A DNA stretch of 64,000 nucleotides from a virus: the IMG/VR virus record IMGVR_UViG_3300045996_000987, one strand, 5' to 3'. The notes under the pieces are model-generated. The model was not told where the DNA came from and did not search any database. It saw only the letters and a list, made by a program, of their open reading frames with translations. Below are positions 14,303 to 63,560 of this stretch, piece by piece. Both the position numbers and the translations under genes were made by a program. Every line of letters begins with the position of its first letter. Position 1 is the stretch's first letter.

Positions 14303-14307
14303 TTGGG

Positions 14308-14490
14308 TTACCGGGTGATCCTTCGCTTGAAGGCGGTGAAGCACACCTCAATGTACTTCCGGAAGACTAGCGCCTCGTCTTCGTCCTTGTAGCGCTCTGC
14401 GATCCACGCCTTCGCGCGGGCTCGCATCTCCTCCGTGTACGGAGGAAGTGCCACCGGCATACTACTCATACGCGCACGCCGGTCAAGCAC
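14308..14490 (-). CDS. Hypothetical protein
   Basis: 60-aa ORF, likely starting at MSSMPV. Confidence 0.3.
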   Translation of the reverse strand: MLDRRARMSSMPVALPPYTEEMRARAKAWIAERYKDEDEALVFRKYIEVCFTAFKRRITR

Positions 14491-24987: not shown

Positions 24988-25092
24988 ACCGAAACCTCGG
25001 GCTGCCTTACTACCAGTAAGACCCTGAAATGGGGGTGGAATGCGGGAAGATAGGGCGGGGCGCCCGATCCTGCGACGCCCCGTCCCGGTGAC

Positions 25093-26268
25093 TCAATCAA
25101 TCAGGCGAAGGGGCATGATAAGATTCACGCTGCCCGCGATGCCCACCGGCTCCACGAGCGCCGCGCGCTCCGGGGCCTTGAAGCTCATGCTCACGGCCGC
25201 CGTCGTCAGGACCGCGAGCGTGTCCAGCACGTACTGCCCGTTGAAGCCGATGGTCATCGGCTCGCCGGAGTAGAGAACGTCCATCTCCATCTTCGCATCG
25301 CCCTTGTCGGGCGTGCTCGCCTCGGCCACGAGCAGACCGGGCTTGAGCGTGAACTTGATGCGGTGCGTCTGATCGCTGGCCACCGCGACGATCGGCTTCA
25401 CCCGCTTGATGAACGCCTCGCGCTCCACGATGAGCGTGCGGTCGTTGTCCCTCGGGATCACCTGCGCGTAGTTCGGGTACGGCCCCTCGATGAGCCGGGC
25501 GATGATCTCGCCGCCCTCGAAGACGATCTTGAGGTGCGTCCGGTGCGTGTCGCCCTTCGTCTGCTTCCGCTCCGGCGTGACCGTGAGCGTGAGCTTCCCG
25601 CTCGTGTCCTTGCCGAGCGCCTTGACGAGCAGCTTGAAGACGGTCGGCGGGATGATGAGGTCGGGCAGCTTCTCGTCCCCCTTCACGCGCTTCGAGCAGC
25701 GGAGCGCCATGATGTGCCCGTTCGTGCCCACGGCGCGGATCTCCTGCTCGCGCTCCGAGTAGTGCACGTAGAGGCCGTTCAGGATCGGGCGGCTCTCCTC
25801 CTCGGAGACGCACTCCATCGCGGGGAGCACGAGGCCGAGCAACCGCGAGGCGGGGCCGCTCCACGCCTTGTCCGTCGTCTCCCACTGGAACGTCGGGAAC
25901 TCATCCACCGGGAGACTGAGGAGCCGCGAGCGGATGCCGTCGCGCTCCACCTCGACCTTCGGATTTCCGCCTTCGGTATCGGCCGGGATCAGCGCGAGCG
26001 CCACGGTGGCACCCTTCTCGGCCTTGCCCTTCAAGATCTCCCGAAGATCCTTGAGGGGGACCAGCACGTCGCCGTCCGCCGTCGCCTTGGCATCGGGGAG
26101 GACGAGGGTGGTCATGTTGTCGAGATCGGTCGTGGTGATGGTGACGCGCCCGTCGCGTGCCGTGAACTTGGCGTAGGTGAGCACGGGGAGCGTCGCGCGG
26201 CGGGGGCAGGAGAGGGCGGCGACAGCGAGGATCTGCGTGAGGCTGGCGCGGCTCGTCGTGATACGCAT
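25093..26268 (-). CDS. dnaN: DNA polymerase III beta sliding clamp
   Basis: Aligns along the full length with E. coli DnaN: ATLPVL, TTTDLD, SRLLSLPVDEFP, NGLYVHYSE...AVGTNGH, GPYPNYAQVIPRD, DVLYSGEPMTIGFNGQYVLDTL, MPLRL. Confidence 0.85.
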   Translation of the reverse strand: MRITTSRASLTQILAVAALSCPRRATLPVLTYAKFTARDGRVTITTTDLDNMTTLVLPDAKATADGDVLVPLKDLREILKGKAEKGATVALALIPADTEGGNPKVEVERDGIRSRLLSLPVDEFPTFQWETTDKAWSGPASRLLGLVLPAMECVSEEESRPILNGLYVHYSEREQEIRAVGTNGHIMALRCSKRVKGDEKLPDLIIPPTVFKLLVKALGKDTSGKLTLTVTPERKQTKGDTHRTHLKIVFEGGEIIARLIEGPYPNYAQVIPRDNDRTLIVEREAFIKRVKPIVAVASDQTHRIKFTLKPGLLVAEASTPDKGDAKMEMDVLYSGEPMTIGFNGQYVLDTLAVLTTAAVSMSFKAPERAALVEPVGIAGSVNLIMPLRLID

Positions 26269-27766: not shown

Positions 27767-27849
27767 TTCGGAATCCTCGTGGGTAAGGGTAGAGCCGCCG
27801 CCCGTGAGGGCGCGGCGGCTCCGAGAGTCCTGCCTTACTGCGAGTAAGG

Positions 27850-31499: not shown

Positions 31500-31549
31500 G
31501 CGACACCTCGCGGTTACTTGGCGTTGCCTTACTGCCGGTAAGGCGCGGG

Positions 31550-32883: not shown

Positions 32884-32926
32884 ACAGTCACTCCGGTTAC
32901 TTGTTGCTTACTGGCCAGTAAGCGGG

Positions 32927-33688
32927 TCAGGCCGCGCGCCGGGCAGTCGCGATGCGGGCCATCATCTCTTCGCGCCACTCCAGCGCGAAGTCGAGCGAGT
33001 TCTGGAGGTTCGTCTGGTCGTCCGTGCTATGGTACTCCCGGCGAACACGCCGCGCTTGGAAGCTCCACGCGAGGCTGTCGCTCGATGCGAGGAAGGGGGC
33101 CGCACTGATGAGGCCCGTGACCTTGAAGCCGAAGCCGTGCAGCTTGAGCCCATGCGCCTTGAGTGTGCGGATGATGTACTGGCCCGAGAACTCCTGCTGT
33201 CGGCGGCAGACCGTGCCGACCCCGACGAGTGGGTAGGTACGAAGATCCACGCCGGCCGCTGTGTACATGTCGATGTGCCGCTCGTGGTCGCCGTGCATCG
33301 ACCATCCTTGTAGGACCGGGATGAACGGTAGCTCGGGCGCAAGATTGCGGAGACAGAGGAAGTTGTCCACGCTCCTCCGCTGGTGCTCCTCGACCGTGAG
33401 CTTCGTCTTGGCCAGCATGTCAGGCTCGCACATCCAGTCCTGCGGGGCGGCCCATGCCATCTTGCCGATCTCGTCCCGGAATCGGCGCACGAGGCGGACG
33501 TACTCGCGGGGGTCCAGCCGCCACTCCCCATACATCGAGAGTTCGCTGAATCCCCCGCTATCCAAAGCCCATCGGCCGAGCGCCCGAGGGAACGTCTTCC
33601 TCCGTTCCAACTGGCGCCGGCTGATGAACAACGGTACGTCGGTCCTCGCCAGCCACGGGACTACGTGGGTGCCGAGGTAGAACTTCAT
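32927..33688 (-). CDS. dpdA: 7-deazaguanine DNA transglycosylase (TGT family, DpdA-like)
   Basis: ALDSGGFSELSM matches the TGT LTDSGGFQVFSL catalytic segment. Further TGT-like segments FYLGTH, AAPQDWMCEP, IPVLQGWS, PLVGVGTV and SSDSLAWS. Short (253 aa) with no Zn subdomain, as in phage DpdA. Confidence 0.7.
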   Translation of the reverse strand: MKFYLGTHVVPWLARTDVPLFISRRQLERRKTFPRALGRWALDSGGFSELSMYGEWRLDPREYVRLVRRFRDEIGKMAWAAPQDWMCEPDMLAKTKLTVEEHQRRSVDNFLCLRNLAPELPFIPVLQGWSMHGDHERHIDMYTAAGVDLRTYPLVGVGTVCRRQQEFSGQYIIRTLKAHGLKLHGFGFKVTGLISAAPFLASSDSLAWSFQARRVRREYHSTDDQTNLQNSLDFALEWREEMMARIATARRAA

Positions 33689-35006: not shown

Positions 35007-35107
35007 GGCGATACCTTGCGTGCTTGGGTGGTTACCTGTGCCTTACTGGCCAGTAACGTTACTGGCCAGTAAGGCGGGGGTACGTCAACAGCGATGCTGC
35101 GGGTGGT

Positions 35108-36768: not shown

Positions 36769-36802
36769 GTGGCCTCCTTACTGGCCAGTAAGCGGTGAGC
36801 GC

Positions 36803-37818: not shown

Positions 37819-37876
37819 CGGGCGTTACTGGTCGTAAGGTGGGTGCCGGGGCCGAAGCCCCGGCCGTGGTGGGTGA

Positions 37877-38471: not shown

Positions 38472-38522
38472 GGCAAGCATGTGCGTTACTCTCCAGTAAG
38501 GCTGGATGGTGGATGGGAACTG

Positions 38523-39161
38523 CTAGTAGATCATCGCGAGGCGATCGAACGGCACGATCGCCTCGTACTCCCCGTACGGCCGCGTCTCGTCAGTCGAGGC
38601 CGCGTGGTTCGGATCGTCCCGGTCGGTCCACACGACGCGGACCTTCTTCTCGAAGGCGAAGACCTCCGCGATCCGGGCGGTGGCCATGTAGTTCGTGTAA
38701 GGGACGTCGTTGCCCCACTTGCTCGTGCGGCGGGCGGTGATTGGGAACGCCTTCCCGCCGAGATCGGTCACCCGCACTCGCTCTCCGAGCTTGATGCGCT
38801 TCGGGTCGATCGCCTCGTTGCAGAGGGCGATGGCCTGCTCGTGGGTGATGCTCGTGATCGTGCCCTCGCCGCCGTCGTGCTTCACAGTGATGAGGAAGGT
38901 CACGAACGACGAGTTCTCGCGGAGCCAGTAGGCGAGTCCGTCGTTACCCGGCGGGCCGGCGTTGAGCAGGTACATCTCGGTGCCATGGGTGCGCAGGAGC
39001 CAGACGAAGCGGTCACCCGCCTTCGACTTGGCCAGTCGGTTCCGGTCGTGCTCGTGGAGGTCTTCCTTGTACGCCACGAGCAGGTGCGGGAACTCGGCGG
39101 CGAGTGCCACGAGCAACGTGTAGAGGTTGCCCGTGCGTCGGATGATCTTGGTGGTCGTCAT
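38523..39161 (-). CDS. Hypothetical protein
   Basis: Start MTTTKIIRR immediately after the palindrome GTTACTGGCCAGTAAGG. Confidence 0.4.
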   Translation of the reverse strand: MTTTKIIRRTGNLYTLLVALAAEFPHLLVAYKEDLHEHDRNRLAKSKAGDRFVWLLRTHGTEMYLLNAGPPGNDGLAYWLRENSSFVTFLITVKHDGGEGTITSITHEQAIALCNEAIDPKRIKLGERVRVTDLGGKAFPITARRTSKWGNDVPYTNYMATARIAEVFAFEKKVRVVWTDRDDPNHAASTDETRPYGEYEAIVPFDRLAMIY

Positions 39162-39178
39162 GTTACTGGCCAGTAAGG

Positions 39179-39891: not shown

Positions 39892-39896
39892 GAGGC

Positions 39897-40580
39897 TTAC
39901 TGGGCAGTAAGGGGCTCGTTGACGACCGCCATGAAGTCGCTCCAGTCGCGGTCGATGGGCCAGATCAGGTAGAACTCACCCGGCGTGTCGTGCGAGCCGG
40001 ACGAATACTGCCCCATCTTGAAGACGCCACTCTCGCGCGCCTTCTGCTGCAAGAGCCACGGCAGGCGCCACTCGTAGTGGGTGATCCGGTTATCGCGGTC
40101 CCGCTGGTGGCACTCCTCGATCCGCCACGGCAGCGGGTCGAGGGAGACTTCCACCATCGCCATCATGTCGTCGGTGAGGCGCGTGAACCACGTCACCTCG
40201 ACCTTGTGGTAGCTCGGCCCGTGCTTGCTGCCCCACTGATTCAGGGTGAGCACGAAGGGCGCGATGTGCGTGATGTCGTTATGCTCCGTGTCCTTGTCGG
40301 TGAGCAGGGCGGTGGGCTTGAAGCTCAGGAACGTGCCCTTCACTCGGGAGAGGTCGAGCGGGGGCAGCGTCTCCATGAGCGCGGCCACCTTGTCCAGCGG
40401 CACGCCCTCGATCGCGACCCGCGCCTTGGTGTACGTCTCGTGGATGGAGCAGCGCACCTTGTAGGCGAAAACCGACTCGGGCAGCGCCGCGGTGATGGCC
40501 GCCTCGCGCTCGATGCGCGCCTTCTCTTCCTCGAACTTGCGCTGCGCCTCGGCCAGCGCTTCCTCTTTGGTCTGTGGCAT
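39897..40580 (-). CDS. Hypothetical protein
   Basis: 227-aa ORF. Confidence 0.4.
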   Translation of the reverse strand: MPQTKEEALAEAQRKFEEEKARIEREAAITAALPESVFAYKVRCSIHETYTKARVAIEGVPLDKVAALMETLPPLDLSRVKGTFLSFKPTALLTDKDTEHNDITHIAPFVLTLNQWGSKHGPSYHKVEVTWFTRLTDDMMAMVEVSLDPLPWRIEECHQRDRDNRITHYEWRLPWLLQQKARESGVFKMGQYSSGSHDTPGEFYLIWPIDRDWSDFMAVVNEPLTAQ

Positions 40581-40612
40581 GGTCCGTTACTGGGCAGTAA
40601 GAGGGTGAGCTA

Positions 40613-41164: not shown

Positions 41165-41190
41165 GTTCCGTTACTCGCAGTAAGGCGTGG

Positions 41191-41705: not shown

Positions 41706-41781
41706 TCGGTCCTCGTGGTGCTTGGGTGAGTAAGGGGACCAGCAAGGCGGCAGGGCGCCGCCTTACTGGCCAGTAAGCGAG

Positions 41782-42282: not shown

Positions 42283-42345
42283 GATGATCCTCGCAGAAAC
42301 TTGGGTTACTTGACGTGCCTTACTGGACAGTAAGGCGGGACCGCC

Positions 42346-43077: not shown

Positions 43078-43106
43078 GGGCGTTACTGGCCAGTAAGGGT
43101 GGAGGG

Positions 43107-43478: not shown

Positions 43479-43488
43479 GGTGTCTCCG

Positions 43489-43797
43489 TTACTCGCCCGT
43501 AAGGCGGTGAGTGACCGTCTCGACGGTGTGCTTCTGCACACGCACGAGGCAGGCGATGTGGTATGGAATGGAGAGATCGTTGGGTGCGCGGTACGCCGTG
43601 ATGACGGCGCCGGACAGGTACCACTCGCCCGCCTTCGGAGCACGCTTCTCGCCTGTCCACTCGGCTCGGACCTCGGGCCATGCGAGCTTGCTCAGGTCGA
43701 TGCTCAGGGCTGCCCGCTCTTCGCGGGTGACGTAATCGCCCACGGGGTAGGTCGCGCCCCGGCGCAGCTTCTCGGACGCGTCGCTCTGGTGTGCCAT
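43489..43797 (-). CDS. Hypothetical protein
   Basis: Start MAHQSDASEK. Confidence 0.35.
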   Translation of the reverse strand: MAHQSDASEKLRRGATYPVGDYVTREERAALSIDLSKLAWPEVRAEWTGEKRAPKAGEWYLSGAVITAYRAPNDLSIPYHIACLVRVQKHTVETVTHRLTGE

Positions 43798-43826
43798 GGT
43801 CGTTACTGGCCGGTAAGGGTGGGCGA

Positions 43827-44412: not shown

Positions 44413-44555
44413 GGAGCAGCCGCGACATGGCCGATGGTCGTGCTGATGGACGTGGTGAGGAAGGACGCCGCCTCGGCCGCCATCCAGAGGAAGCCGAGAA
44501 GGAGGATCGCGCGAGAGGCCGCGCAGAGCTTGCGATCGAGCGAGCGGTTCATGGC
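44413..44555 (-). CDS. Small membrane protein (46 aa, below the ORF-track cutoff)
   Basis: ATG immediately after a palindrome copy; hydrophobic ILLLGFLWMAAEAASFL helix; GCCCTCC...GGAGGGC hairpin downstream. Confidence 0.3.
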
Positions 44556-44573
44556 GTTACTGGCCGGTAAGGC

Positions 44574-44984: not shown

Positions 44985-45047
44985 ACGGTTACCTCCTACG
45001 GGTTACTTGGATGGGACACGCAGCCTTACTGGGAGTAAGGCTGACAG

Positions 45048-45134
45048 GGGACGAGGCACGAATCGAACGTGCGCCTCCGCGAGAACACGCATTACTGAGC
45101 GAGTCGCGGCGCTCTGCCACTGAGCTACCCGTCC
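45048..45134 (-). tRNA. tRNA-like gene with oversized (21-23 nt) anticodon loop
   Basis: Minus strand. Acceptor GGACGGG/CTCGTCC, D-arm GCTCAGTGGCAGAGC, T-arm GCACGTTCGATTCGTGC; the anticodon stem CCGCG/CGCGG encloses ACTCGCTCAGTAATGCGTGTTCT. Confidence 0.35.
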
Positions 45135-45428: not shown

Positions 45429-45498
45429 GATCGGTTACCTCAAGCGAAGGGTTACTTGGAACGGCGGCCTTACTGGCAGTAAGGCAGGGGTACTGCGA

Positions 45499-45555
45499 TG
45501 GCATGCCGCACGAGTCGAACGTGCGCGGAGTAGTGCTCCGGTCCAGACGCATGCC
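45499..45555 (-). ncRNA. Truncated tRNA-like element (acceptor, anticodon-like hairpin and T-arm; no D-arm)
   Basis: T-arm GCACGTTCGACTCGTGC is nearly identical to the element at 45048-45134; flanked by GGCATGC/GCATGCC. Confidence 0.2.
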
Positions 45556-45938: not shown

Positions 45939-45982
45939 GGTTACTTGTGGTGAAGGGTTACTTGCCTTACTGCCAGTAAGGA

Positions 45983-46201
45983 TCAGCGGACGACCGTCTC
46001 GAAGAGGATGACGTAGGGACCGCCCTCGAAGTTCACGCGATCCTCGCCAACGCTCACGATGGATAGGTGCTGGTTGATGGCGATGCTATTGACCGTGGCG
46101 TAGAAGCCAGACTCGGCATCGGGACGCGCGGTGTAGTCGCGCTCTTCGGTTTCCATGGAGTCAGAGCCAGTGCGAGCTATGACCCGGTATGCGAGTCGCA
46201 T
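45983..46201 (-). CDS. Hypothetical protein
   Basis: GGAGG RBS; palindrome and CAAGTCACC upstream. Confidence 0.4.
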   Translation of the reverse strand: MRLAYRVIARTGSDSMETEERDYTARPDAESGFYATVNSIAINQHLSIVSVGEDRVNFEGGPYVILFETVVR

Positions 46202-46316
46202 GTGACCTCCTACGGGTGACTTGCCTTACTGCCAGTAAAGGACTGCCATGCGCGCCCACGGCCCGACCCGTGGCGACCTTACTGGCGAGTAAGGCCGAAC
46301 CCATGCGCGCTCCACG

Positions 46317-46556
46317 TCACTTCCGGGACTGACAAGGGCAGGCGCAAATCTTCGCCATCGCCGCGTCAATCTTCGCCTGCTCGTTCCGCTGGAACCGTTC
46401 GAGGTTGTGTGCACCCATGATGAACACGACGTGCCGGGGCGCATGCTTGTGCTGGAGCATGCGGAACTCGGCAAGCTGCGCGTCGATGAGGTCCATCGCG
46501 CAGCCAGTGCAGTCGCGCCACGGCTTCGTGTAGACGGCGATCGGGGCGGAAGCCAT
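46317..46556 (-). CDS. Glutaredoxin/NrdH-like redoxin
   Basis: IAVYTKPWRDCTGC (CxxC) and PRHVVFIMG resemble the Grx fold; start refined to MASAPIA. Confidence 0.4.
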   Translation of the reverse strand: MASAPIAVYTKPWRDCTGCAMDLIDAQLAEFRMLQHKHAPRHVVFIMGAHNLERFQRNEQAKIDAAMAKICACPCQSRK

Positions 46557-46756
46557 TGCTGTCTCCAAGTGAAGGGGAAAGCTTACTGCCAGTAAGGGAC
46601 GGGGAAGTGGGCCGGCGGGCATCGAATCCCGCACACGGGGCTGTTATCGAGCGAGGGGTTGCGTGTGTCCGATCTTCGGCCCAATGCGCGCCCACGGTGC
46701 GAGCCGTGGCAGCCTTACTGGGCAGTAAGGCCGAACCCATGCGCGCGTTCCATCTA

Positions 46757-47077
46757 CTAGGCGATCTGCAAGGCAGCCATGTCAGCCTTGCGACGCTTGG
46801 CGGCGTGGTGGTAGCTGGCCAGACCGCGGACGTGGACCGCCTTGCGCTCGAACTCGATGCGGGCGGCCGTGGCGACCTTGCGGTCGAGGACCATGAGGTA
46901 GACGTACTGCTCGAACTTCGCGGCGCGCTCCGCGATGAACGCCTGCGAGTCGCGGTAGTAGGTGCCGTGGTCGGACGTGCTCACCCACGCCAGATTGGAC
47001 CCCTGCTCGCGAAGATCGGCCGCGATGCGAGCGATGGCGCGACGGATGGCGAGGAAGATGCGGACCTTGCGGATCAT
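46757..47077 (-). CDS. Hypothetical protein
   Basis: Start refined to MIRKVRIF. Confidence 0.35.
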   Translation of the reverse strand: MIRKVRIFLAIRRAIARIAADLREQGSNLAWVSTSDHGTYYRDSQAFIAERAAKFEQYVYLMVLDRKVATAARIEFERKAVHVRGLASYHHAAKRRKADMAALQIA

Positions 47078-47207
47078 GGGACGTTCTCCGGAACATGGTG
47101 ACGTGTGCCTTACTGGCGAGTAAGGCGAGGGGACTGCCATGGCGCGGCGAGGGCGCGACCCCTCGCGACCTTACTGGCAGTAAGGCCGAACCGATCCGCG
47201 CGACCGA

Positions 47208-47480
47208 CTACTCGGAAGGATCGACGTGGCCAAGCGCGACCACGTTGAGCGTGCACACGTCGCGATCGTCAAACTTCCCGTGCGGGTCGATCCGGGCGAT
47301 TTCGTGCTCGGGTTGCGTGAGGCAGTCGAGGAACGCCCGCGGCTCGGAGCCGTAGGTGAACGTGACCGCGAAGCGGCTGACGTCGGCGCGAGCGGCGAGC
47401 ATGCGACGGCCGTCGTGCTGGCCAAGGAAGAAAGCGGCGAAGGCAAGCAGAACGGCGGCGACGGTGGCGATGGCGCGCAT
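47208..47480 (-). CDS. Secreted small protein (signal peptide)
   Basis: MRAIATVAAVLLAFAAFFLG N-terminus. Confidence 0.4.
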   Translation of the reverse strand: MRAIATVAAVLLAFAAFFLGQHDGRRMLAARADVSRFAVTFTYGSEPRAFLDCLTQPEHEIARIDPHGKFDDRDVCTLNVVALGHVDPSE

Positions 47481-47689
47481 GGGACGGACTCCGGAACATG
47501 GTGGACGTTACTGGCCAGTAAGGGACGGCCCTACGGTACTGCAACGTGCGCCGTGCCTGCGAAAGCACGCGGGCGGCACCCCTGCCTTACTGGCCAGTAA
47601 TGCCGCCCGAACCGATGCGCACTGCCGTTCGACTACACTGGCGGACGGGCGCGCACGTCTCGTGCGCGTCCGGCCGGCAGTCACCACAC

Positions 47690-48403
47690 TTACGCGACCG
47701 GCATGGCAGCGACGTTCTTGCCGACCGACGTCAGGACCGCGAGAATGTCCTTGGGAGCCATGCCGTCGCGCACGCCAGCCTTGACCGCATCGGCGAAGAT
47801 CGCCGCCATCTTCACGGCGTCCATCTTGCCCGTCGTGTCCACGGCCGGCGCGTCGGTCGCGGGCGCGTCCACCGTGCCGCCCTTGCCACCCTTGCGCGAC
47901 GGCGCCGCGGCGGCCCATCCCTGCTCGATGGCGTAGAAGCTGCCGACGTTGCCCGTGAAGAAACCGACCGCGGTCGCACTGCCGTTCATGGCGTCGCGGA
48001 CGGCGCGCGTCACCTTGCTGTACCGGACGGTGAGCGAACGGTAGGCGGTCACGACGGCCGCCATGCTCTCCGGGAACGTGTCGCACGCGTTGGCGTCGAA
48101 CCGATCTTCATCGCTCGCGAACGCGTCCCACATCTTGCGCTCGGCCGGCGACAGCTTGGCCAGCAACCCCGCCCGGAGCGCGTCCACCACGGCCGCCCGG
48201 AAGCCGTCCAGCATCTTGCGCTCGCTCCACGTCGCGAGCCCCGCGGCGACGGCCGCGATGTAGAAGGACCGGGCCACGTTGTCCATCTTGCGCCCGGCCG
48301 ACCGGCCCAACGTCGCGATGTCGAGGTTGTCCGCGATGGCGCCCGTGATGAACGCGGCGGCGATGGCGAACGTGACGTTGGCGTTGCTCGTGGTCTTCGA
48401 CAT
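47690..48403 (-). CDS. Hypothetical Ala-rich protein; first gene of the leftward block
   Basis: Start refined to MSKTTSNANV with AAAGGTGACCAAA-ATG upstream. Confidence 0.4.
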   Translation of the reverse strand: MSKTTSNANVTFAIAAAFITGAIADNLDIATLGRSAGRKMDNVARSFYIAAVAAGLATWSERKMLDGFRAAVVDALRAGLLAKLSPAERKMWDAFASDEDRFDANACDTFPESMAAVVTAYRSLTVRYSKVTRAVRDAMNGSATAVGFFTGNVGSFYAIEQGWAAAAPSRKGGKGGTVDAPATDAPAVDTTGKMDAVKMAAIFADAVKAGVRDGMAPKDILAVLTSVGKNVAAMPVA

Positions 48404-48445
48404 TTTGGTCACCTTTGGAAACTGGGTTGAACAGTCGCAAGGCAT

Positions 48446-49800
48446 TCGCTTGCGACACTGGCGCGCATCGCTCCGAAACGATGCGGAACCTTGCTGCCGT
48501 TACTGGCCAGTAAGGACCGAACCTATCGCGCCGTGACGGTCGCCCGTCACTTGGCATGCGTTCCACAATCCCGGCCCGACGCAATCCCTTGTGTTGAGAC
48601 TGCCGGAATCACTGGCGAATTCCCCGTGTCACGCCCTGTCACGGCCCGGATTCATCGCCCGATATTCCACCGCTCTTGCTTCCCGCATACTTGGCCCCAT
48701 GGCGTCCGGCCGTCGCGACGTTTCACAACGTTGCCCGGATTGCGTCCGCCATTGCCTAGACCGCATTCCCCGCGATGCACTCGGCTCGCTCTTGCGGTCA
48801 CTCGCTCCACCCGGCGCCATTCTGGCGAACCTTCCGCCCGCAACCCGCGGGTTGCGTTTGAACCTCTGGCACCTTGCCCGTTTCCCTTCCCGCCCTTTGG
48901 GGTCCACCGTCCGGTCGCATCCTTTCGGGATTCCATCCCCGGCCCCATCGGGCACGGTGGCGGAATCCGTTTCGGCGCTCCGGCGGGGCCGCTTCCCGAT
49001 CCGGGGAAGCGGCACGCCCCATTGGCGCGGTGTGCCTTTCGGCACTATGTCAATCAGCATGTGGTCCGGGGCCGATACGTTGCGCATGCTTGCCGCTTGC
49101 CGCTTGTCGCGCGCCTATCGGAATGCCGTCCGCCATTCTGTGCCGTACCGTGCGCCACACGTTCGCTTGCCGCTTGCCGCTTGTCCGTGTGTCCTACGCA
49201 ACCCGCCCGCTTGCTCGTGCATCGGAGTTGCCGCCGGTACGTGCCGGTCTTCCTTACTGCCGGTAACGTTGCGTTACCGTATCCGACCCGCTTGTGTCGG
49301 TCGCGCCACGCGTTGCGCACCGGCCGGGTTGTCTTTTCTGCCCGCCGCTTTCCTTCCGACCCCTCCGCATAAGCCCTTTTACGAATGCGGCCATTTTCCC
49401 AAACCCCCCATTTGCACCGACTTACAGCGCTCGATTTGCCATGCGCAAAACGCGAATGCCCCCGGTTGCCCCCATCGTCCTCGAAGTAACTGAGGACATC
49501 ACGGGAGTAACCGGGGACAACGTGTAAGTACCCGAGAAGTACAGGCTTAAACTCAGTGAATCCGACGAAAACGACCCCTTACGCACCCCCTTCGCGTACG
49601 TATGGGGTAGCTCTCGATCAACTCATGGCCATCTCTTCGCGCTTCCTATATAGGAAAAGACGGGATCGACGTTGGAGTAGGTGATGGGGGCCGAAAAGGG
49701 TGCGGGGCCGCTGAGGGCAGTGGGCCGAAAGTGTCCTATACGGCGTAATCGAGAGGTATCAGGTACCGAGTACCAAGTAACCGATCCTCAAGTAACCGCT
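48446..49800. promoter_or_regulatory. Non-coding divergent control region between the leftward and rightward gene blocks
   Basis: No credible ORF (only Arg/Pro-rich noise frames). Contains GCTTGCC direct repeats, hairpin CCGCTTCCCG...CGGGGAAGCGG, AT-rich palindrome TTCCTATATAGGAA (about 49641-49654), GGGCCGAAA(A)G direct repeats and promoter-like element A at 49732-49758. Confidence 0.5.
49732..49758 (+). promoter_or_regulatory. Promoter-like element TGTCCT-N13-GAGAGGTA, followed by two CAAGTAACC copies
   Basis: tgtcct(49732-37) and gagaggta(49751-58), then accaagtaacc...tcaagtaaccgctc-GTG. Confidence 0.45.
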
Positions 49801-54950: not shown

Positions 54951-55024
54951 GTCCTTCTAGCTCAACTGGTTAGAGCAGCGGACTCTTAATCCGCAGGTTC
55001 TCGGTTCGATCCCGAGGGGGGACA
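54951..55024 (+). tRNA. tRNA-Lys(CTT): tRNA-Lys (anticodon CTT)
   Basis: Cloverleaf: acceptor GTCCTTC/GGGGGAC with two G-U pairs, D-arm GCTCAACTGGTTAGAGC, anticodon loop CTCTTAA, T-arm CTCGGTTCGATCCCGAG. Confidence 0.65.
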
Positions 55025-55166
55025 TAGGTACGGATGCAGTCGGGCCGCGGGAGTACAACATCGGGGGTGTGCGCAAGCACGAGTCGTTCCCCGTCAACGC
55101 TCCGGGTTCCGTAACTTCCGTACCGCTCGATCGAGTGGAAAGACCGGCGAAGACCCGGTACGGACA

Positions 55167-55200
55167 GGCTCCGTTCGTCTAGTCAGATAGGACGCCACTC
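55167..55200 (+). pseudogene. Diverged duplicate of the 5' half of tRNA-Glu (no 3' partner)
   Basis: GGCTCCGTTCGTCTAGTCAGATAGGACGCC shares CCGTTCGTCTA with tRNA-Glu at 55427; no complementary acceptor or T-arm follows. Confidence 0.3.
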
Positions 55201-55426
55201 ACGGCAGGTGTTGGTAGCAGGTGCGGGGCTCGCTTCATGGCGAAGCAATGCGAGGCCACAACCGTCCCGAGGCCCTAAGTTCCCACTGGTAGCTCAGTGG
55301 GCGACCTCCTTCTTAGGGTGTTCCCTCTACTCTTGGAGCGCGAACTAGGTCGCCACTGTGGTCGTAAGCGGGTAGCCTCGGAGTGTCTTGTCTTGGACAG
55401 CCCGCTCGTCGCAGGTGTCAGGTGAA

Positions 55427-55498
55427 GGCCCGTTCGTCTATCGGTTAGGACGCTACCCTTTCAAGGTGGAGAGACGAGTTCGACTCTCGTACGGGCTA
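55427..55498 (+). tRNA. tRNA-Glu(TTC): tRNA-Glu (anticodon TTC)
   Basis: Acceptor GGCCCGT/ACGGGCT, D-arm GTCTATCGGTTAGGAC, anticodon loop CTTTCAA, T-arm ACGAGTTCGACTCTCGT. Confidence 0.7.
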
Positions 55499-55938
55499 CT
55501 GCTCTTCGCTGTAACTTGAAGGGACTTAGGGAAGTGTAGGACCAGTACCGGGGCCGACATGGCATCGACTGGTATGTGACACGGAACGTCGAAGTGCGCC
55601 GAGGGACTTCATCTCGCCTCGTAAATCACGGGTGGACAAAACACAAATGCCAGCGATAACCTCGCGGCAGCGGATCGGCTTCTGGCCGAAGTTCTTGGCG
55701 GCGTAGCCGTCGAGAACCCCCACTTCGCAGCGGTCTAACGACCCTCGTAGCGGGTGACGCAACCCTGACGGACTCCGATACAGTCAGGGGCCTTGCATCG
55801 GGCGACACCGGGAGAGACTGGGGGTCTTGTCAGTGTCCCTTACCACGACTGACGACGGTTGGCTCGCTCGCCACGGGACCGTAACACCCGAAGGAGCTAC
55901 GCGCGCTGAACAAGACTGAACGACGATCATATCAACAC

Positions 55939-55963
55939 GGGAGTTCGATTCTCCCCGGCTCCA
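55939..55963 (+). ncRNA. Orphan tRNA 3'-end-like sequence (T-arm, acceptor 3' strand, CCA) ending a roughly 430-nt non-coding stretch
   Basis: GGGAGTTCGATTCTCCCCGGCTCCA; no matching 5' acceptor or D-arm upstream. Confidence 0.3.
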
Positions 55964-56181
55964 CTTGCTCCACGAGGTCACCATGCAGGTCATGTATCCA
56001 CGGACGCGAGTAACCGTACCGACAATGGAAGACGTGAAGAAGACGTGGGCGAGCCTACGTCATCGTGTGAAGTACGCGGTGAGCAAGACCTACCGTGAGC
56101 AGTTGGAACGGGAACGCGCAGAGCAGCGCGTGCGGGCCATGATGTACCTGCGGACGCCACCCGTCGTATAGCTCGCGGTAC

Positions 56182-56267
56182 GCCGGGGTATCCAAGAGGC
56201 CAAAGGGTGCTGACTGTAAATCAGCCGGGCGCCACGCCCTTCGTAGGTTCGACCCCTACCCCCGGCA
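56182..56267 (+). tRNA. tRNA-Tyr(GTA): tRNA-Tyr (anticodon GTA)
   Basis: Acceptor GCCGGGG/CCCCGGC, anticodon loop CTGTAAA, long variable arm, T-arm GTAGGTTCGACCCCTAC. Confidence 0.7.
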
Positions 56268-56274
56268 CTGTGCT

Positions 56275-56358
56275 GCTCGGATGGCGAAACTGGTAAACGC
56301 GCCAGACTTAGGATCTGGTGGGCGAAAGCCCCTGTCGGTTCGAGTCCGACTCTGAGCA
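56275..56358 (+). tRNA. tRNA-Leu(TAG): tRNA-Leu (anticodon TAG)
   Basis: Acceptor GCTCGGA/TCTGAGC, anticodon loop CTTAGGA, long variable arm, T-arm GTCGGTTCGAGTCCGAC. Confidence 0.7.
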
Positions 56359-56525
56359 TGTTGTCGCGTTTCCCCTGACAGGACGGGCGGTTAGTCATCA
56401 ACCAATATTGTCTGTCGCCGGTAGTTCGGAAATGCTCTCGTTTGATGGGGCGCGCTTGTAGAGGTGCTTAAACGCCGAAACCCCCAAAGGCACCCGTAGA
56501 TGAGCGACGGGGCCGACTACCAATG

Positions 56526-61598: not shown

Positions 61599-62384
61599 TT
61601 AGAAGGTCGTCCCGAAATCGACCTCGATCAACAGGCCCCTCGGCAGCCCGGCAAGGTCGAGGAGATCCGCGAGCAGCCCGTGCATCTCAGTCATCGGGGC
61701 GAAGAACATCGTCTCGCCCTGCATGCGGCGGGTGTTGTACGTGGTCACCATCGTCCGGAGCCGCTGCCGCTGATCGTGGCCCGTGATCTTCGCGCTCGCT
61801 CGCTTGGTCGGAGGCGGGCTCACCGTCCCGACACCAACGACGGCGGTCCCGTTCTGCGCCGCCTTCCTCGCGCGGAGCTTGATGGCGTTCGGCGTCATGG
61901 AGAGCGGCTTGCCCGTTCGCGGGGAGCGAGGCACCTGCCCGTCGCTGCGCGGCGCCCTCCCCGTGGGATGGGCACCCGGACGGGGCTTCCCGGCTTGCCC
62001 CGCTGCCCGGCGTATCCGTTCGAGTTGGTCCTGTGCGAAGGCGTACTCGTAGCCGCCCGCCAGCAACTCGGCCCGGATGTCCTCCTGCGACCGCCGAAGG
62101 GCCTTCGCGAGCGCCTTCACGAGCGGCGGGACGAACGGGTGGTTCACCGGCAGTTCGTAGTTCCGCTCCATCCGCATGAGCGAGCTATCGGACACCCCGC
62201 TCGCGTCCTGCATGGCGCGGAAGCTCAGGCCCGCCTCCGTGCGCAACCGTGCGAGGTTCTTGCTGACGGCCGCCGGGGGCCGCTGGTAGAACGAGCCCTC
62301 CGCGACACTCCGGAGCGACGGAGGGAGGGCCGTGTTCGAGGCCGGCGGGGTGATCTCCCCGACGACAGGGGCGGAAGCAGCCAT
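61599..62384 (-). CDS. XRE-family helix-turn-helix transcriptional regulator with C-terminal domain
   Basis: SKNLARLRTEAGLSFRAMQDASGVSDSSLMRMERN matches the HTH_XRE pattern. Confidence 0.6.
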   Translation of the reverse strand: MAASAPVVGEITPPASNTALPPSLRSVAEGSFYQRPPAAVSKNLARLRTEAGLSFRAMQDASGVSDSSLMRMERNYELPVNHPFVPPLVKALAKALRRSQEDIRAELLAGGYEYAFAQDQLERIRRAAGQAGKPRPGAHPTGRAPRSDGQVPRSPRTGKPLSMTPNAIKLRARKAAQNGTAVVGVGTVSPPPTKRASAKITGHDQRQRLRTMVTTYNTRRMQGETMFFAPMTEMHGLLADLLDLAGLPRGLLIEVDFGTTF

Positions 62385-62402
62385 GGTGCGGATCTCCTCG
62401 GG

Positions 62403-62894
62403 TTAGGACACGGCGGCGAGCAGTTCGCTCTCGATCGCGTGCCGGAGGTCGTTGATCTGGCCCTTCACCGGGCGCATCTCCTTGAGCGAGCCGTAGCGGT
62501 CGAACCAGCGGCTCAGTTCCCGCAACGCCTGCTCGACCACCTGCTCGCGGAGCCTCGACTGCCGCATGGCCGTCTGGAGGGGGACGTACGCCTTCCGGCT
62601 GTGCGGCGTCGGCTGCACGTAGACGAATGCCTTCGTGGCTGTCTTGCGGGCGCCCTTGACGAGCACCAACTGGGACATGACCGAGCCGGTCTGCTTCGTC
62701 CGGTAGAGGTCGGCCGCCTTGGCGTCGTCGCGCTCGATCAGCGGGTGGAGGGGACTCCGGCGATCGGCCGCCTCAGCCAAGATCGTTTCCTTCGTCACGC
62801 CGCCGTGTTCCGCCGCCAACGCTTCGAGGCGGTCACCGACCGCTTGGGCGTCGGCGGTGGGGAACAGGCTTTCGTTTCGCCATGCGTAGCGCAC
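62403..62894 (-). CDS. Hypothetical protein (GTG start)
   Basis: CAAGTATCC...GGAGACGGTC-GTG context; upstream part of the track ORF rejected. Confidence 0.35.
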   Translation of the reverse strand: MRYAWRNESLFPTADAQAVGDRLEALAAEHGGVTKETILAEAADRRSPLHPLIERDDAKAADLYRTKQTGSVMSQLVLVKGARKTATKAFVYVQPTPHSRKAYVPLQTAMRQSRLREQVVEQALRELSRWFDRYGSLKEMRPVKGQINDLRHAIESELLAAVS

Positions 62895-63042
62895 GACCGT
62901 CTCCGAGTTACAGGGTCCGTGGGATACTTGTGGACAAACGCCGTAAGTGGCTGCCCGCAAGGATGATACCGAGGCGTCCCGGACGGCGCCACCCTCTGCC
63001 CCCGTGGGGTGCCCCGGAGGGTGTAACTGGTGGCCATGGGAC

Positions 63043-63069
63043 TGTCCTGTCCGGGCCGATCGGGAGGTA
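63043..63069 (+). promoter_or_regulatory. Promoter-like element TGTCCT-N13-GGGAGGTA (no ORF downstream)
   Basis: tgtcct(63043-48), gggaggta(63062-69). Confidence 0.4.
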
Positions 63070-63183
63070 ATGGGGCTATTGGGCAAACCGCAGATAGCCC
63101 GGAGGTATTGGCACTCCAGCCCGGCGGGCAAATAACACCTAGAGGTTAAAAATGCACAATTCAACCTAGAGGTTATGGCGGTC

Positions 63184-63289: not shown

Positions 63290-63560
63290 TGGGAGTGCGC
63301 CCGCGCGCCCCTACTACGAGTTACTGAGTTACTTCAACGTCGAAGTAGCTCGTTTGCCAGAGTTACTTGAGAGTGGCAATAAGAGAGTTACTTCGACGTA
63401 ACGGTCTAACTCAGACGTAACACTGAACTCACACGTAAATCACAAGGAACTCGAAGAGCAAAGAGTTACGAGAGAGTTCTAACAACATACGCTCACGTAA
63501 CAGAGAACAGATACTCTTCACGTTACGTCAACGAGAGCGTTGAGTAGCGTTGAGCCTGTG
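63290..63560. repeat. AT-rich island with at least 10 GTAAC/GTTAC-core repeats (GAGTTACT, ACGTAAC, CACGTTAC)
   Basis: About 45% G+C against about 67% overall; copies include AGAGTTACTTG, which is CAAGTAACTCT on the other strand. Confidence 0.6.

Follow-up and report, generated by a model that had tools for sequence, protein, structure and literature searches.

A 33-copy palindrome found mostly in a leftward phage gene block, possibly an operator, is combined with RNA hairpins and start signals in five composite intergenic units

The window analyzed, 64,000 nucleotides of an uncultured phage (virus record IMGVR_UViG_3300045996_000987), carries a leftward block of co-directional, minus-strand genes that spans approximately 25-48.5 kb. 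Small open reading frames (ORFs) with no assigned function lie at the start of this block, and the gaps between them hold repeated units. An earlier note suggested that these may be terminator-plus-operator cassettes, recombination hotspots for gene shuffling, or small structured RNAs. Which of these functions does the arrangement of the units support?

The hairpins, boxes, palindromes, start-associated sequence and Shine-Dalgarno (SD) sequences listed in the earlier note were all present on the minus (coding) strand, and a multiple alignment of the five gaps was good well beyond the palindrome, with a common order of parts. The composite units lie at 46202-46316, 46557-46756, 47078-47207, 47481-47689 and 48404-48560 (units 1 to 5). 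Each runs from the upstream stop codon through a box, GCGCGCATGG-GTTCGG, palindrome A, a GC-rich hairpin, a second box, GCGCGCATGG-CAGTCC, palindrome B and a leader to the SD sequence and ATG; the second box and second palindrome were found in four of the five units. The gaps described earlier were real, but some of their boundaries were not: gene starts were reset from 48445, 47140 and 46634 to 48403, 47077 and 46556 on the basis of better third-position GC content, the positions of the SD sequences and a common 26-nt leader, CACCATGTTCCGGAGNNCGTCCCATG, that is 92% identical. Two gaps therefore become 46557-46756 and 47078-47207, with palindrome B inside them. A palindrome before the next gene was confirmed as a second copy in four units, but the unit at 48.5 kb has a single palindrome.

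Unit 1 fills the gap from the gene end at 46317 to the gene start at 46201. Box 1 (GCGCGCATGGGTTCGG, 46295-46310) is followed by palindrome A (CCTTACTCGCCAGTAAGG, 46277-46294; 14-mer core 46279-46292, RNA hairpin -8.4 kcal/mol), a GC hairpin, CCACGG/CCGTGG, with a 6-nt loop (46256-46273), box 2 (GCGCGCATGGCAGTCC, 46240-46255), palindrome B (CCTTTACTGGCAGTAAGG, 46224-46240; 13-mer core 46226-46238), and the leader CAAGTCACC, a variant of the start-associated motif, with the SD sequence AGGAGG (46202-46223). Unit 2 consists of box 1 (46731-46746), palindrome A (46713-46730), the GC hairpin (46691-46708), box 2 (46682-46691) and palindrome B (46581-46597), and ends in SD GGAGA and the ATG at 46556. 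The same SD precedes the ATG at 47077 in unit 3, where box 1 (47186-47201), palindrome A (47169-47185), the hairpin GCGAGGG/CCCTCGC (47147-47166), box 2 (47131-47146) and palindrome B (47108-47125) are arranged alike. Unit 4 opens with a long GC hairpin with 21-nt arms (47637-47681), followed by box 1 (47607-47622), palindrome A (47585-47602), a structured GC-rich spacer (47525-47584), palindrome B (47506-47523), SD GGAGT and the ATG at 47480. Unit 5 is the 5' leader of the first gene (ATG 48403) and contains the hairpin GTGACGG-GCGA-CCGTCAC with a GNRA loop (48533-48550), box 1 (48517-48532), the single palindrome (48498-48515) and two more hairpins (48464-48485 and 48434-48456).

Identity of 80-90% among the units had been claimed, and it held for three of the five (84-89% over 37-63 nt). 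The repeat search aligned 63 nt at 89% identity between 46248-46310 and 46684-46746, and it found a 37-nt stretch (84%) and a 27-nt stretch (89-93%), each common to three units; for the units at 47.5 and 48.5 kb, similarity over 61 nt was only approximately 70%. Among the eight proteins whose genes surround the units, blastp detected no similarity of one to another (all E > 0.5), and the view that these gaps have been homogenized was upheld.

The palindrome, of the form CCTTACT-N3/4-AGTAAGG in the composite units, proved not to be special to the five gaps. The pattern TTAC-N5/6-GTAA gave 33 matches compared to 0.11 expected, and CTTACTG-N0-3-CAGTAAG gave 10 compared to 0.00 expected. The family ranges over 25.0-49.3 kb with one further copy at 63.4 kb. 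Thirty-one copies are at gene junctions of the leftward block; one, the variant TTACCGGCAGTAA (49252-49268, minus strand), is in the 1.3-kb non-coding region that separates the two gene arms, and one, TTACTTCGACGTAA (TTAC-N6-GTAA, 63388-63401), is in non-coding DNA upstream of an Xre-type helix-turn-helix (HTH) operon. All 33 are non-coding, apart from an overlap of one copy with the last codons of a gene, and they are densest in the five composite gaps. The palindrome's spread through the gene block had been missed previously, as had the separateness of the start-associated family, which occurs on both arms.

Outside the units, 13-mer copies lie at 45965-45981, where AAGTAACC follows twice ahead of the ATG at 45938; at 45468-45484, in a gap shared with a tRNA-like minihelix (45500-45555); and at 45024-45040, 9 nt downstream of a tRNA gene (45048-45134). 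The tRNA and the minihelix lie in the next two gaps after the five units. Start-proximal copies were found at 44555-44572 (TGA-gcc-TTACCGGCCAGTAA-cgcc-ATG, without an SD), 43801-43818 (ATG 43797, 5 nt on), 43487-43504 (ATG 43478, 10 nt), 43081-43098 (ATG 43077, 5 nt), 41169-41185 (a 13-mer; ATG 41164, 6 nt), 40585-40602 (ATG 40580, 6 nt) and 38484-38501 (ATG 38480, 5 nt). The copy at 39895-39912 supplies the upstream gene's stop codon with its own TAA, 5 nt before the next ATG, and the copy at 39161-39178 lies 1 nt before the ATG at 39161. At 36776-36793 the right arm continues into the SD (AGTAAGGAGG), with the ATG at 36768 9 nt on, and at 42318-42335 the palindrome is followed by AAGTAACC, an SD and the ATG at 42282. 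Three copies adjoin GC hairpins: that at 41761-41778 directly precedes GGCGGC/GCCGCC (41746-41762); on the minus strand at 37823-37864, a hairpin with a cUUCGg tetraloop (37845-37864) precedes the palindrome (37825-37837) and the ATG at 37818, 6 nt on; and at 27792-27849, also minus strand, the palindrome (27835-27847) precedes GAGCCGCCGC/GCGGCGGCTC (27792-27821). The remaining sites are a tandem pair at 35041-35074; a copy at 32906-32923, which directly follows the dpdA gene and precedes AAGTAACC and the ATG at 32883; a 13-mer with left arm TTACC at 31527-31543; and the copy most distant from the start of the block (25005-25021), 19 nt before the ATG at 24987.

The palindromes and the GC hairpins of the same gaps are conserved in opposite ways. 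In the GC hairpins the sequence drifts at the same place and pairing is retained, with two compensatory pairs among three units. In the palindromes, invariance of the TTAC and GTAA tetranucleotides was built into the search pattern, and strong conservation also extended to the fifth position of the arm and to the C...G flanks; the central 3-4 nt are free (GGCC, GCCC, GGAG, GTCC, CGCC, GGC, GCC, CCC, CGC and others). Conserved arms around a free center suggest recognition of two half-sites by a dimer. Predicted RNA hairpin strength was not conserved, ranging from -1 to -10 kcal/mol: copies with GCC...GGC flanks reached -8 to -10 kcal/mol, and ATG-proximal ones only -1 to -4.6 kcal/mol.

We therefore tentatively favor the palindrome as an operator present in many copies and recognized by a dimeric DNA-binding protein, similar to stoperators or to the conserved inverted repeats (CIRs) of Streptomyces phage phiC31, and joined here to RNA hairpins and start signals. 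This reading draws on the 33 non-coding copies, nearly all in one co-directional block, on the lack of conserved hairpin strength, on the GC hairpins as an internal control, and on the paired sites in the first four gaps and at 35043-35056 and 35059-35072, which are 2 bp apart. The element encodes two integrases and is hence plausibly temperate, and a long lytic block would then need silencing. An unrelated, bacterial-looking contig carries the identical 14-mer in two copies separated by 7 bp, immediately upstream of a TTGACA, which hints that proteins with such specificity may exist. Precedents are the L5 stoperators, the phiC31 CIRs and the C repressor of phage 16-3. Operators of the 434 type, ACAA-N6-TTGT, have the same geometry as the 14-mers, in which half-site centers are 10 bp apart.

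Of the three functions proposed earlier, the terminator-plus-operator cassette came closest to the evidence. The palindrome is conserved like a protein-recognition site and the GC hairpin like a structural RNA, but every hairpin checked lacked a U-tract, and the canonical terminator fell away. An Rfam search gave no support for the units as small structured RNAs. The site (C)C-TTAC-N5/6-GTAA-(G/C)G, 13 or 14 bp, would be bound as double-stranded DNA by a dimeric HTH-type regulator, either phage-encoded or taken from the host. The candidate is an Xre-family protein (61599-62384), the only regulator candidate detected, encoded in the sole Xre-HTH operon detected (61599-63164, minus strand). From palindromes filling the short gaps of this early or middle block (25-48.5 kb), the bound regulator would block transcription initiation, elongation or both, in the prophage state or as an early shut-off, as for L5 stoperators and phiC31 CIRs. 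In the composite gaps, the GC hairpin bracketed by two sites would act in RNA as an attenuator, 3'-end stabilizer or processing site, and the start-associated motif and SD would close the unit. The outcome would be a portable "insulator plus start" cassette, homogenized between unrelated genes. The sequence itself shows the copy number, the positions, the conservation pattern and the contrast with the GC hairpins; protein binding, the identity of the binder and repression by binding are what we infer from these patterns.

Several observations count against an operator. Spacing is fixed in most dimeric operators, and here 13-bp (13 of 33) and 14-bp (20 of 33) forms are mixed; the phage 16-3 C repressor accepts spacers of 4 and 6 bp. 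No phage homolog of the HTH protein was found, nor any recognizable promoter beside the palindrome sites, nor a relative in which co-variation of site and protein could be followed. The five arm deviations all fall in the upstream (left) arm, and 12 sites have C rather than G at the +1 flank, so the site is not fully symmetric and its constraints are tied to gene direction. Its half-site, AGTAA(C), is similar to the start-associated motif RGTAACC, a separate, strand-specific family (sense:antisense 42:2) with a gene start within 30 nt of 35 of its 44 copies. At approximately 10 junctions, 1-7 nt separate the end of the right arm from an ATG without an SD, and the stop codon is 2-12 nt upstream; this is a translational-operator position that a DNA model leaves unexplained.

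That position fits a rather doubtful alternative, in which the palindrome is an RNA translational operator. Its 3' arm (AGUAAC/G) would coincide or overlap with the next gene's start-associated signal, and this signal would be hidden in polycistronic mRNA by the hairpin, either by itself or with a phage protein bound. Downstream translation would then need an upstream ribosome (coupling) or be shut off at a set time, as with T4 RegA or the MS2 coat protein. Placement between stop and start, the directional asymmetries, the right arm AGTAACG of start-proximal copies, close to RGTAACC, and a loop free to vary in length and sequence all fit, and the neighbors are clearly RNA elements (GC hairpins with UUCG or GNRA loops, cUUCGg and GCGA, the tRNA and the minihelix). 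However, the stem is conserved rather than co-varying, with no G-U pairs and with C-A mismatches in the sense RNA from three of the five arm deviations, and the ATG-proximal hairpins are the weak ones. RNA-hairpin-binding proteins usually recognize loops, which are not conserved here. For approximately 20 copies the ATG is 19-160 nt away and has an ordinary SD in between; masking the motif at such places would have no effect. Neither the copy at 49254 nor that at 63388 is beside a start.

An unlikely explanation, compatible with operator, RNA-operator and promoter functions alike, is that the 60-130-nt units are chiefly evolutionary, serving as homologous recombination sites that swap, insert or delete genes. 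Near-identical cassettes between unrelated ORFs are compatible with the gene-shuffling hotspots of the earlier note, as are the small ORFs around the units. Such a role has been described for the PeSLs (promoter-early stem-loops) of T4-type phages, small, composite, conserved intergenic stem-loop/promoter cassettes that flank unrelated small early ORFs (PMC2839356; PMC4122927), and recombination between repeats was also inferred in Cluster O mycobacteriophages (PMC4351075). PeSLs combine a terminator with a sigma-70 early promoter, whereas the units here have neither such a promoter nor a U-tract, and their conserved core is the palindrome. Searches for relatives found no related genome that could display a unit-bounded insertion or deletion, and single palindromes of 18 nt are short for homologous exchange.

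It is improbable that the palindromes are hairpin-type or other phage-specific promoters, with initiation approximately 12 nt downstream of the center and, for start-proximal copies, mRNAs that have no leader or a very short one. The N4 virion RNA polymerase initiates at hairpin promoters, and the stem with a 3/4-nt loop resembles the geometry of N4 early promoters. In 8 of 11 start-proximal sites the center is 11.5-13.5 nt before the A of an ATG without an SD. No sigma-70 consensus was found within 44-50 kb, and a promoter-like motif that heads operons elsewhere, CTGTCCT-N13/14-GRGAGGTA, is missing from the 19.2-48.5 kb block. Against this, no gene for an RNA polymerase of any type was recognized in the window, the ATG distance is 19-160 nt at the other 20 sites, and a density of 31 promoters over 23 kb, with two only 53-80 nt apart on either side of a hairpin, is hard to rationalize; palindrome A would send transcription straight into the GC hairpin. 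Least probable is RNA processing. Here palindromes A and B would pair into a 16-18-bp duplex with the GC hairpin at its tip, and RNase III-type cleavage of this duplex would release single-gene mRNAs from the early polycistronic transcript, as happens in the T7 early region. The minimum-free-energy fold does join A to B in units 1, 3 and 4, with the GC hairpin enclosed (z-scores -2.3 to -3.2), and the tRNA and tRNA-like element would be processing signals too, but two palindrome copies give this pairing automatically, A and B are 132 nt apart in unit 2, unit 5 has one copy, and approximately 22 junctions carry a lone palindrome too short for RNase III.

As an operator, the palindrome system resembles known phage systems and introduces no new principle. 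The phiC31 CIRs are reportedly palindromic repressor operators with many highly conserved intergenic copies in the early region and also at the repressor gene, in a phage with a large serine integrase. The palindromes here are likewise numerous, highly conserved and intergenic, with one copy near a regulator gene, but CIRs are 17 bp, with fixed spacing and an unrelated sequence, and in the present phage a variant copy lies near the HTH gene, with the HTH protein a candidate repressor only. In Cluster A mycobacteriophages (L5, Bxb1), more than 20 short conserved stoperators lie in short intergenic spaces of lytic operons, with extra copies at promoters, and repressor-bound sites silence transcription (PMC9283540). 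The arrangement along operons is alike; stoperators are asymmetric 13-mers, monomer-bound and oriented with transcription, whereas the putative operator here has dyad symmetry over 13 or 14 bp, is restricted to a single block and, in the first four gaps, stands on both sides of an RNA hairpin.

Cluster O mycobacteriophages carry more than 30 copies of a 17-bp repeat, TGTTCGGNNNCCGAACA, in which inverted arms of 7 bp flank a variable 3-bp spacer; it is enriched in the short gaps of the leftward operon and absent from the host, and a dimeric regulator is suspected (PMC4351075). About one third of those copies are inside genes, and the spacer does not vary in length; here it can be 3 or 4 nt, coding overlap is limited to the one copy, and the right arm merges with the start signal. 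In Cluster K mycobacteriophages, an asymmetric short motif, the start-associated sequence (SAS), lies in one orientation a few nt upstream of some non-structural gene starts, and inverted repeats with a variable spacer precede approximately half of these (extended SAS; PMC3203893). The SAS, GGGATAGGAGCCC, includes an SD core and RGTAACC does not; the arms of the extended SAS are imperfect, 17 bp long and separated by 4-13 bp, compared to nearly perfect arms of 5-7 bp, 3-4 bp apart, here, where inverted repeat and start motif overlap in the start-proximal class. The largest ORFs in the window encode a ribonucleotide reductase and a serine recombinase.

The palindrome TTAC-N5/6-GTAA was found 33 times in the window, against 0.11 copies expected, and occurred in two lengths (20 14-mers and 13 13-mers). 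The leftward (minus-strand) genes extend from approximately 48.4 kb as far as the window's left end, the rightward genes begin at 49.8 kb, and the two arms are separated by a 1.3-kb stretch free of ORFs. Thirty-one of the 33 copies are located at gene junctions of one block of the leftward arm, 25.0-48.5 kb. One further copy lies at 49254 in the inter-arm non-coding region, and another, TTACTTCGACGTAA at 63388-63401, lies in non-coding, generally GTAAC-rich sequence approximately 225 nt upstream of an operon encoding an Xre-type helix-turn-helix (HTH) protein, where it is a variant candidate autoregulatory site. Junctions at 46.2-47.7 kb carry two copies and those at 38-46 kb about one; copies are sparse over 25-37 kb, and both the sequence below 25 kb and the rightward genes lack them. 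The palindrome was present in about 24 of approximately 31 gaps of at least 20 nt in 25-48.5 kb, whereas none of approximately 17 such gaps in 2.6-25 kb carried it. No copy was intragenic; that at 39897-39910 provides the TAA stop codon of the upstream gene.

Two classes of site were distinguished by position. In the first (about 20 sites), the right flank is GG and the ATG lies 19-160 nt downstream, with CAAGTAACC-type motifs and an ordinary Shine-Dalgarno (SD) sequence in the interval. The second class comprises about 11 sites at 38-44.6 kb and is flanked by CG on the right; the stop codon of the preceding gene is 2-12 nt before the palindrome, and the ATG follows within 1-7 nt in nine of the 11 sites and at 9 and 10 nt in the remaining two; an SD is missing from most of these junctions. 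A pyrimidine-rich YCACC tract was observed 1-8 nt upstream of the left arm of many palindromes (43503-43512, 36792-36801, 40601-40610 and 37838-37846, for example), giving sequences such as CUCACCGCCUUAC, and the tract together with the left arm resembles the 3' tail of 16S rRNA, CACCUCCUUA. The right arm, AGUAAGG, matches the 5' portion of an extended SD, and 36778-36799 reads AGTAAGGAGG.

A second family is the start-associated 7-mer RGTAAYC (typically CAAGTAACC or AGGTAACC, with CAAGTACCC variants), of which 44 copies were found. Forty-two are gene-sense and two antisense, compared to approximately 9 expected per strand, and a plausible gene start lies at most 30 nt away in 35 of the 44. 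The motif is placed 0-25 nt upstream of start codons, often where an SD would be expected, and on both arms it is often paired at a distance of 13-17 nt; examples are located at 45945, 45962, 37553, 34328, 30942, 18444/18457, 14538/14554, 2557/2572 and 49776/49791. Of the 79 starts curated, an SD was present at 44, RGTAAYC alone at 14 and neither at 21, and in eight of the 14 RGTAAYC-only starts the motif is the right arm of a palindrome. The earlier note had listed a start-associated sequence as one part of a repeated intergenic unit; the motif is real, but it is a separate, directional family that extends over both arms. RGTAAYC resembles a conserved stretch of 16S rRNA, AAGGUAACC, rather than a complement of the anti-SD. 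Use of its TAA as the upstream stop codon was rejected, as this holds in only 4 of 44 copies.

The third family, gatt-CTGTCCT-N13/14-(C)GRGAGGTA, occurred 14 times, invariably gene-sense and often followed by AGGGGTGTAAC. Nine copies are on the rightward arm (49731, 51861, 53835, 54647, 57011, 59013, 63042, 63183 and 63582, plus strand); the leftward arm has the other five, all below 19.2 kb (19189, 14626, 12027, 4938 and 2624, minus strand). They sit in longer non-coding gaps, many of which are apparent operon heads, and the family looks like a non-sigma-70-like promoter class. It is missing from 19.2-48.5 kb, the palindrome region, which argues that the palindrome block is a distinct expression class. 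A scan of viral contigs with this motif returned isolated chance matches only.

The first gaps of the leftward block carry the palindrome within five composite units, 46202-46316, 46557-46756, 47078-47207, 47481-47689 and 48404-48560 (units 1 to 5, minus strand). Read on the coding strand, the order of parts was confirmed to be identical: upstream stop codon, box 1 (GCGCGCATGG-GTTCGG), palindrome A (CCTTACT-N3/4-AGTAAGG), a GC-rich hairpin, box 2 (GCGCGCATGG-CAGTCC), palindrome B, leader, SD and ATG. The first gene's leader, unit 5, carries one palindrome only and three unrelated hairpins. An identity of 80-90% had been claimed for all five repeats; it was borne out for units 1-3 (89% over 63 nt, 84% over 37 nt and 89-93% over 27 nt), but units 4-5 reached only about 70% over 61 nt. 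Gene starts at 48403, 47077 and 46556 are favoured by third-position GC, by SD positions and by a common 26-nt leader, and with these revised starts two of the gaps become longer and palindrome B falls within them. The units are surrounded by genes for eight proteins that are mutually non-paralogous (all blastp E > 0.5), so tandem gene duplication does not account for the likeness of the gaps and was rejected as the origin of the units. Cassette shuffling is compatible with all of the molecular models, the unrelated flanking genes being the sole feature that points to it.

An intrinsic (Rho-independent) terminator consists of a GC-rich hairpin followed by a U-tract. The suggestion that the units include terminators did not hold in this canonical sense, as no terminator-like site was detected in any unit and the unit hairpins are followed by GCGCGCATGG or C-rich sequence rather than a U-tract. 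A search of 44-50 kb for sigma-70 promoters likewise yielded no promoter-like sites; canonical terminators and sigma-70 promoters were therefore both rejected as the identity of the units. An Rfam search of 44.9-49.9 kb returned one tRNA and no other known RNA family. Also rejected were a tRNA-like fold of the box, for which Rfam gave no signal; antisense mini-ORFs starting from an ATG in the box, which only five of nine boxes have; and DNA looping by helical phasing of palindromes A and B, whose centre distances (53.5, 60.5, 79, 132.5 and 16 bp) share no phase.

Palindromes and GC hairpins were found to vary in different ways. The hairpins keep a constant place in each unit and retain their pairing while the sequence drifts, CCACGG/CCGTGG in units 1 and 2 becoming GCGAGGG/CCCTCGC in unit 3. 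Two compensatory pairs were identified among the three hairpin sequences, a statistically weak result that 45 of 500 shuffles equalled. Unrelated hairpins occupy matching positions in units 4 and 5 and beside the palindromes at 27.8, 37.8 and 41.7 kb, and RNA tetraloops are present at 37845-37864 (cUUCGg) and 48533-48550 (GCGA). The GC hairpins thus appear to evolve as RNA structural elements do. In the palindromes, the arm sequence and the outer C...G are conserved, the central 3-4 nt are free, and the half-site centres of the 14-mers are 10 bp apart. Fixed arms, a free centre and this spacing are the pattern expected where a dimer reads double-stranded DNA. As RNA, the palindromes have predicted hairpin stabilities of -10 to about -1 kcal/mol, the start-proximal class being marginal. 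In the folds of units 1, 3 and 4 (z = -2.3 to -3.2), palindromes A and B pair with each other and enclose the GC hairpin. This duplex has an RNase III-like shape, but such pairing is automatic for any two copies of a palindrome and was not general among the units.

Function is inferred here throughout from position and conservation in one sequence. At somewhat less than even confidence, we rank first a role for the palindrome as a many-copy operator on double-stranded DNA. This ranking was based on the pattern of arms and centre, on the additional copies between the arms and upstream of the sole HTH operon, on a tandem pair of palindromes 2 bp apart at 35 kb, and on the presence of two integrases on the element, all of which are compatible with an operator of the kind represented by L5 stoperators and the conserved inverted repeats of phiC31. 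Searches for a binding protein with Pfam and PHROG (approximately 60 proteins) identified one HTH protein only, the Xre-type protein at 61599-62384 (minus strand), which had no match in phage records. Sites for LexA, CtrA and IHF, whose half-sites or spacing we take to be mismatched to the palindrome, were rejected.

An operator on DNA does not explain the variation in length between 13 and 14 bp, although the C repressor of phage 16-3 reportedly tolerates 4- and 6-bp spacers. Nor does it account for the directional asymmetry of the sites (the five arm deviations all fall in the upstream arm, and 12 sites have C as the +1 flank), for the near-constant distance of 4-6 nt between the right arm and a following ATG without an SD, or for the likeness between half-site and start-associated motif. 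These same features point to a role at the RNA level, in which the palindrome would be a translational operator or would hide the start motif; we consider such a role somewhat doubtful. A further proposal, which we regard as improbable, is that the palindromes and the CAAGTAACC motif form a phage-specific, non-SD start code. AGUAAC would then serve as a start signal, recognised by a factor of phage or host origin, the palindrome would consist of this signal joined to its own complement, and about 30 early genes would be gated post-transcriptionally, either through opening driven by ribosomes or a protein or through leaderless mRNAs made from hairpin promoters. If true, such a code would offer a mechanistic handle on the long-unexplained SAS/ESAS (start-associated sequences and their extended form) and Cluster O type repeats of other phages. 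Hairpin promoters of the N4 type have a 5-7 bp stem and a 3-nt loop, are centred approximately 11-12 nt upstream of the transcription start, and are read by a giant virion RNA polymerase. The features that an operator on DNA leaves unexplained could also fit promoters of this kind yielding leaderless mRNAs, a reading we regard as unlikely. Of the 11 start-proximal sites, 8 have their palindrome centre 11.5-13.5 nt from the ATG, a geometry that fits, but the window, part of an incomplete contig, yielded no recognisable RNA polymerase gene.

The palindrome was compared with known repeat systems. REP/BIME elements are dispersed as the same palindrome across a host chromosome together with a RAYT transposase; genome and metagenome scans here gave single chance-level matches, the pattern of the genome scan being itself absent from the window. 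Integron attC sites are imperfect palindromes of 57-141 bp with RYYYAAC...GTTRRRY cores, and the IntI gene lies beside the array. An attC cassette array was rejected, because the arms read GCCTTAC...GTAAGGC, boxes 1 and 2 are direct rather than inverted repeats, IntI is absent, and the sole tyrosine recombinase is 28 kb away. The conserved inverted repeats (CIRs) of phiC31 are of fixed length, with many intergenic copies in the early region and one at the repressor gene. The family described here is likewise an inverted repeat with an intergenic distribution, and TTACTTCGACGTAA, in its GTAAC-rich region approximately 225 nt from the Xre-HTH operon, could correspond to the copy at the repressor gene; unlike the CIRs, the family comprises 13 thirteen-mers and 20 fourteen-mers. 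Stoperators of the L5 type occur as more than 20 copies of a short site, placed in the short gaps between genes of lytic operons, and the site is an asymmetric 13-bp sequence whose orientation tracks transcription and which, when bound by the immunity repressor, stops elongation (PMC9283540). The many junctional copies, 31 of 33 within 25-48.5 kb, are similar, but the site here is a dyad of 13 or 14 bp. The 17-bp repeat of Cluster O is TGTTCGGNNNCCGAACA (PMC4351075), a different sequence, so that the likeness is in kind only. In Cluster K, the SAS has the 13-bp consensus GGGATAGGAGCCC and the ESAS consists of imperfect 17-bp inverted repeats separated by 4-13 bp (PMC3203893). RGTAAYC (42:2) is similarly an asymmetric motif of single orientation near starts; the motif here is CAAGTAACC, however, with arms of 5-7 bp and a spacer of 3-4 bp. 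Promoter-early stem-loops (PeSLs) combine a stem-loop with a sigma-70 early promoter, flank unrelated small ORFs and mark indel breakpoints (PMC2839356; PMC4122927). Stem-loops and unrelated flanking ORFs are present here as well, but promoter-like sites were not found in 44-50 kb.

By kind, the family groups with stoperators, CIRs, Cluster O repeats, SAS/ESAS and PeSLs; by sequence or defining features it is a member of none of them. It is distinguished by a dyad with two spacings, by confinement to one gene block, by its occurrence in pairs flanking an RNA hairpin in the first gaps, and by overlap with a non-SD start motif in about 10 genes. To our knowledge, the many-copy intergenic repeats of phages comprise stoperators, CIRs, Cluster O repeats and SAS/ESAS, all from actinobacteriophages, with a mechanism established for two only. 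The present element belongs to an unrelated, uncultured, GC-rich phage-like lineage with tRNAs, a tmRNA, DpdA and a ribonucleotide reductase (RNR), and carries three separable repeat families in one genome: a block-confined dyad, a strand-specific start motif on both arms and a promoter-like motif at operon heads. Since dyad and start signal overlap in about 10 genes that have no SD, the choice between a DNA and an RNA operator is directly testable, and the answer would bear on the unexplained actinophage repeats. The five units indicate that homogenised regulatory cassettes between unrelated genes also occur outside T4-like phages.

The window (65% GC) is part of a 66-kb JGI metagenome contig. 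Domain scans (Pfam/PHROG) identified a large serine recombinase (12068-14344, minus strand) and a tyrosine integrase (17390-18424, minus strand), so that both recombinase types are present on one element. Other genes encode a class II RNR that runs off the left end (3-2537, minus strand), a DnaN-like sliding clamp (25093-26268), the 7-deazaguanine DNA transglycosylase DpdA (32927-33688, minus strand; Pfam E = 1e-75), which implies 7-deazaguanine-modified DNA, and phage-like proteins including an AAA/clamp-loader-like ATPase, a DUF7007 protein, an HNH endonuclease, a NUDIX protein and a 5'-3' exonuclease. Since no virion genes were recognised in the window, the contig is probably the non-structural portion of a larger genome. 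No close relative was found in any collection searched. Megablast of 44-49 kb against phage records gave zero matches, exact look-ups of the window proteins found no record, and a homologue search with the first gene of the leftward block matched only itself. Pattern scans of viral, genome and metagenome collections returned isolated chance-level matches only, two of these scans, including the sole scan of genome contigs, being weaker because the 18-mer used, CCTTACTGGCCAGTAAGG, is absent from the window. The DUF7007 protein had matches of at most 45% identity in unrelated phages without such repeats. Distant relatives were limited to those of DnaN (23-29% identity), which span diverse phages with the best matches in phages of Alphaproteobacteria, and of DpdA (43-58%), in uncultured viral contigs that lacked the palindrome, the start motif and the promoter-like motif. 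Two exact copies of TTACTGGCCAGTAA, 7 bp apart, were observed at 10653-10687 of an unrelated, bacterial-looking metagenome contig (Ga0209023_10002383; 68% GC), at the end of an Lrp/AsnC gene and directly upstream of a TTGACA and a chemoreceptor gene; the pair may be a bacterial operator of the same specificity, or chance.

Several other elements were observed. The ORF-free inter-arm region, 48561-49730, contains an exact 21-nt repeat, GCTTGCCGCTTGCCGCTTGTC, at 49088 and 49165 that is iteron-like, together with several hairpins, a TTGACA and one variant palindrome, and is a candidate origin or control region. The densest GTAAC/GTTAC cluster of the window (nine in 210 nt, including four GAGTTACT(T/G) and several ACGTAAC) is in non-coding sequence at 63310-63530, upstream of the Xre-HTH operon (61599-63164, minus strand), and is a candidate operator array, replication origin or regulatory RNA. 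Five tRNAs and one tmRNA are encoded in the window. A tRNA gene at 45048-45134 (minus strand; Rfam 50 bits, Glu-CTC by ARAGORN) has a 23-nt insertion in the anticodon loop, and a tRNA-like minihelix at approximately 45500-45555 (minus strand) has an acceptor GGCATGC/GCATGCC, a T arm GCACG-TTCGACT-CGTGC and one extra hairpin; the two occupy neighbouring gaps of the early leftward operon, each with a palindrome a few nt downstream. Four tRNAs (Lys, Glu, Tyr and Leu) are clustered with a one-piece tmRNA at 54951-56359 (plus strand); the predicted tag of the tmRNA is unusual and ends ...HFAAV.
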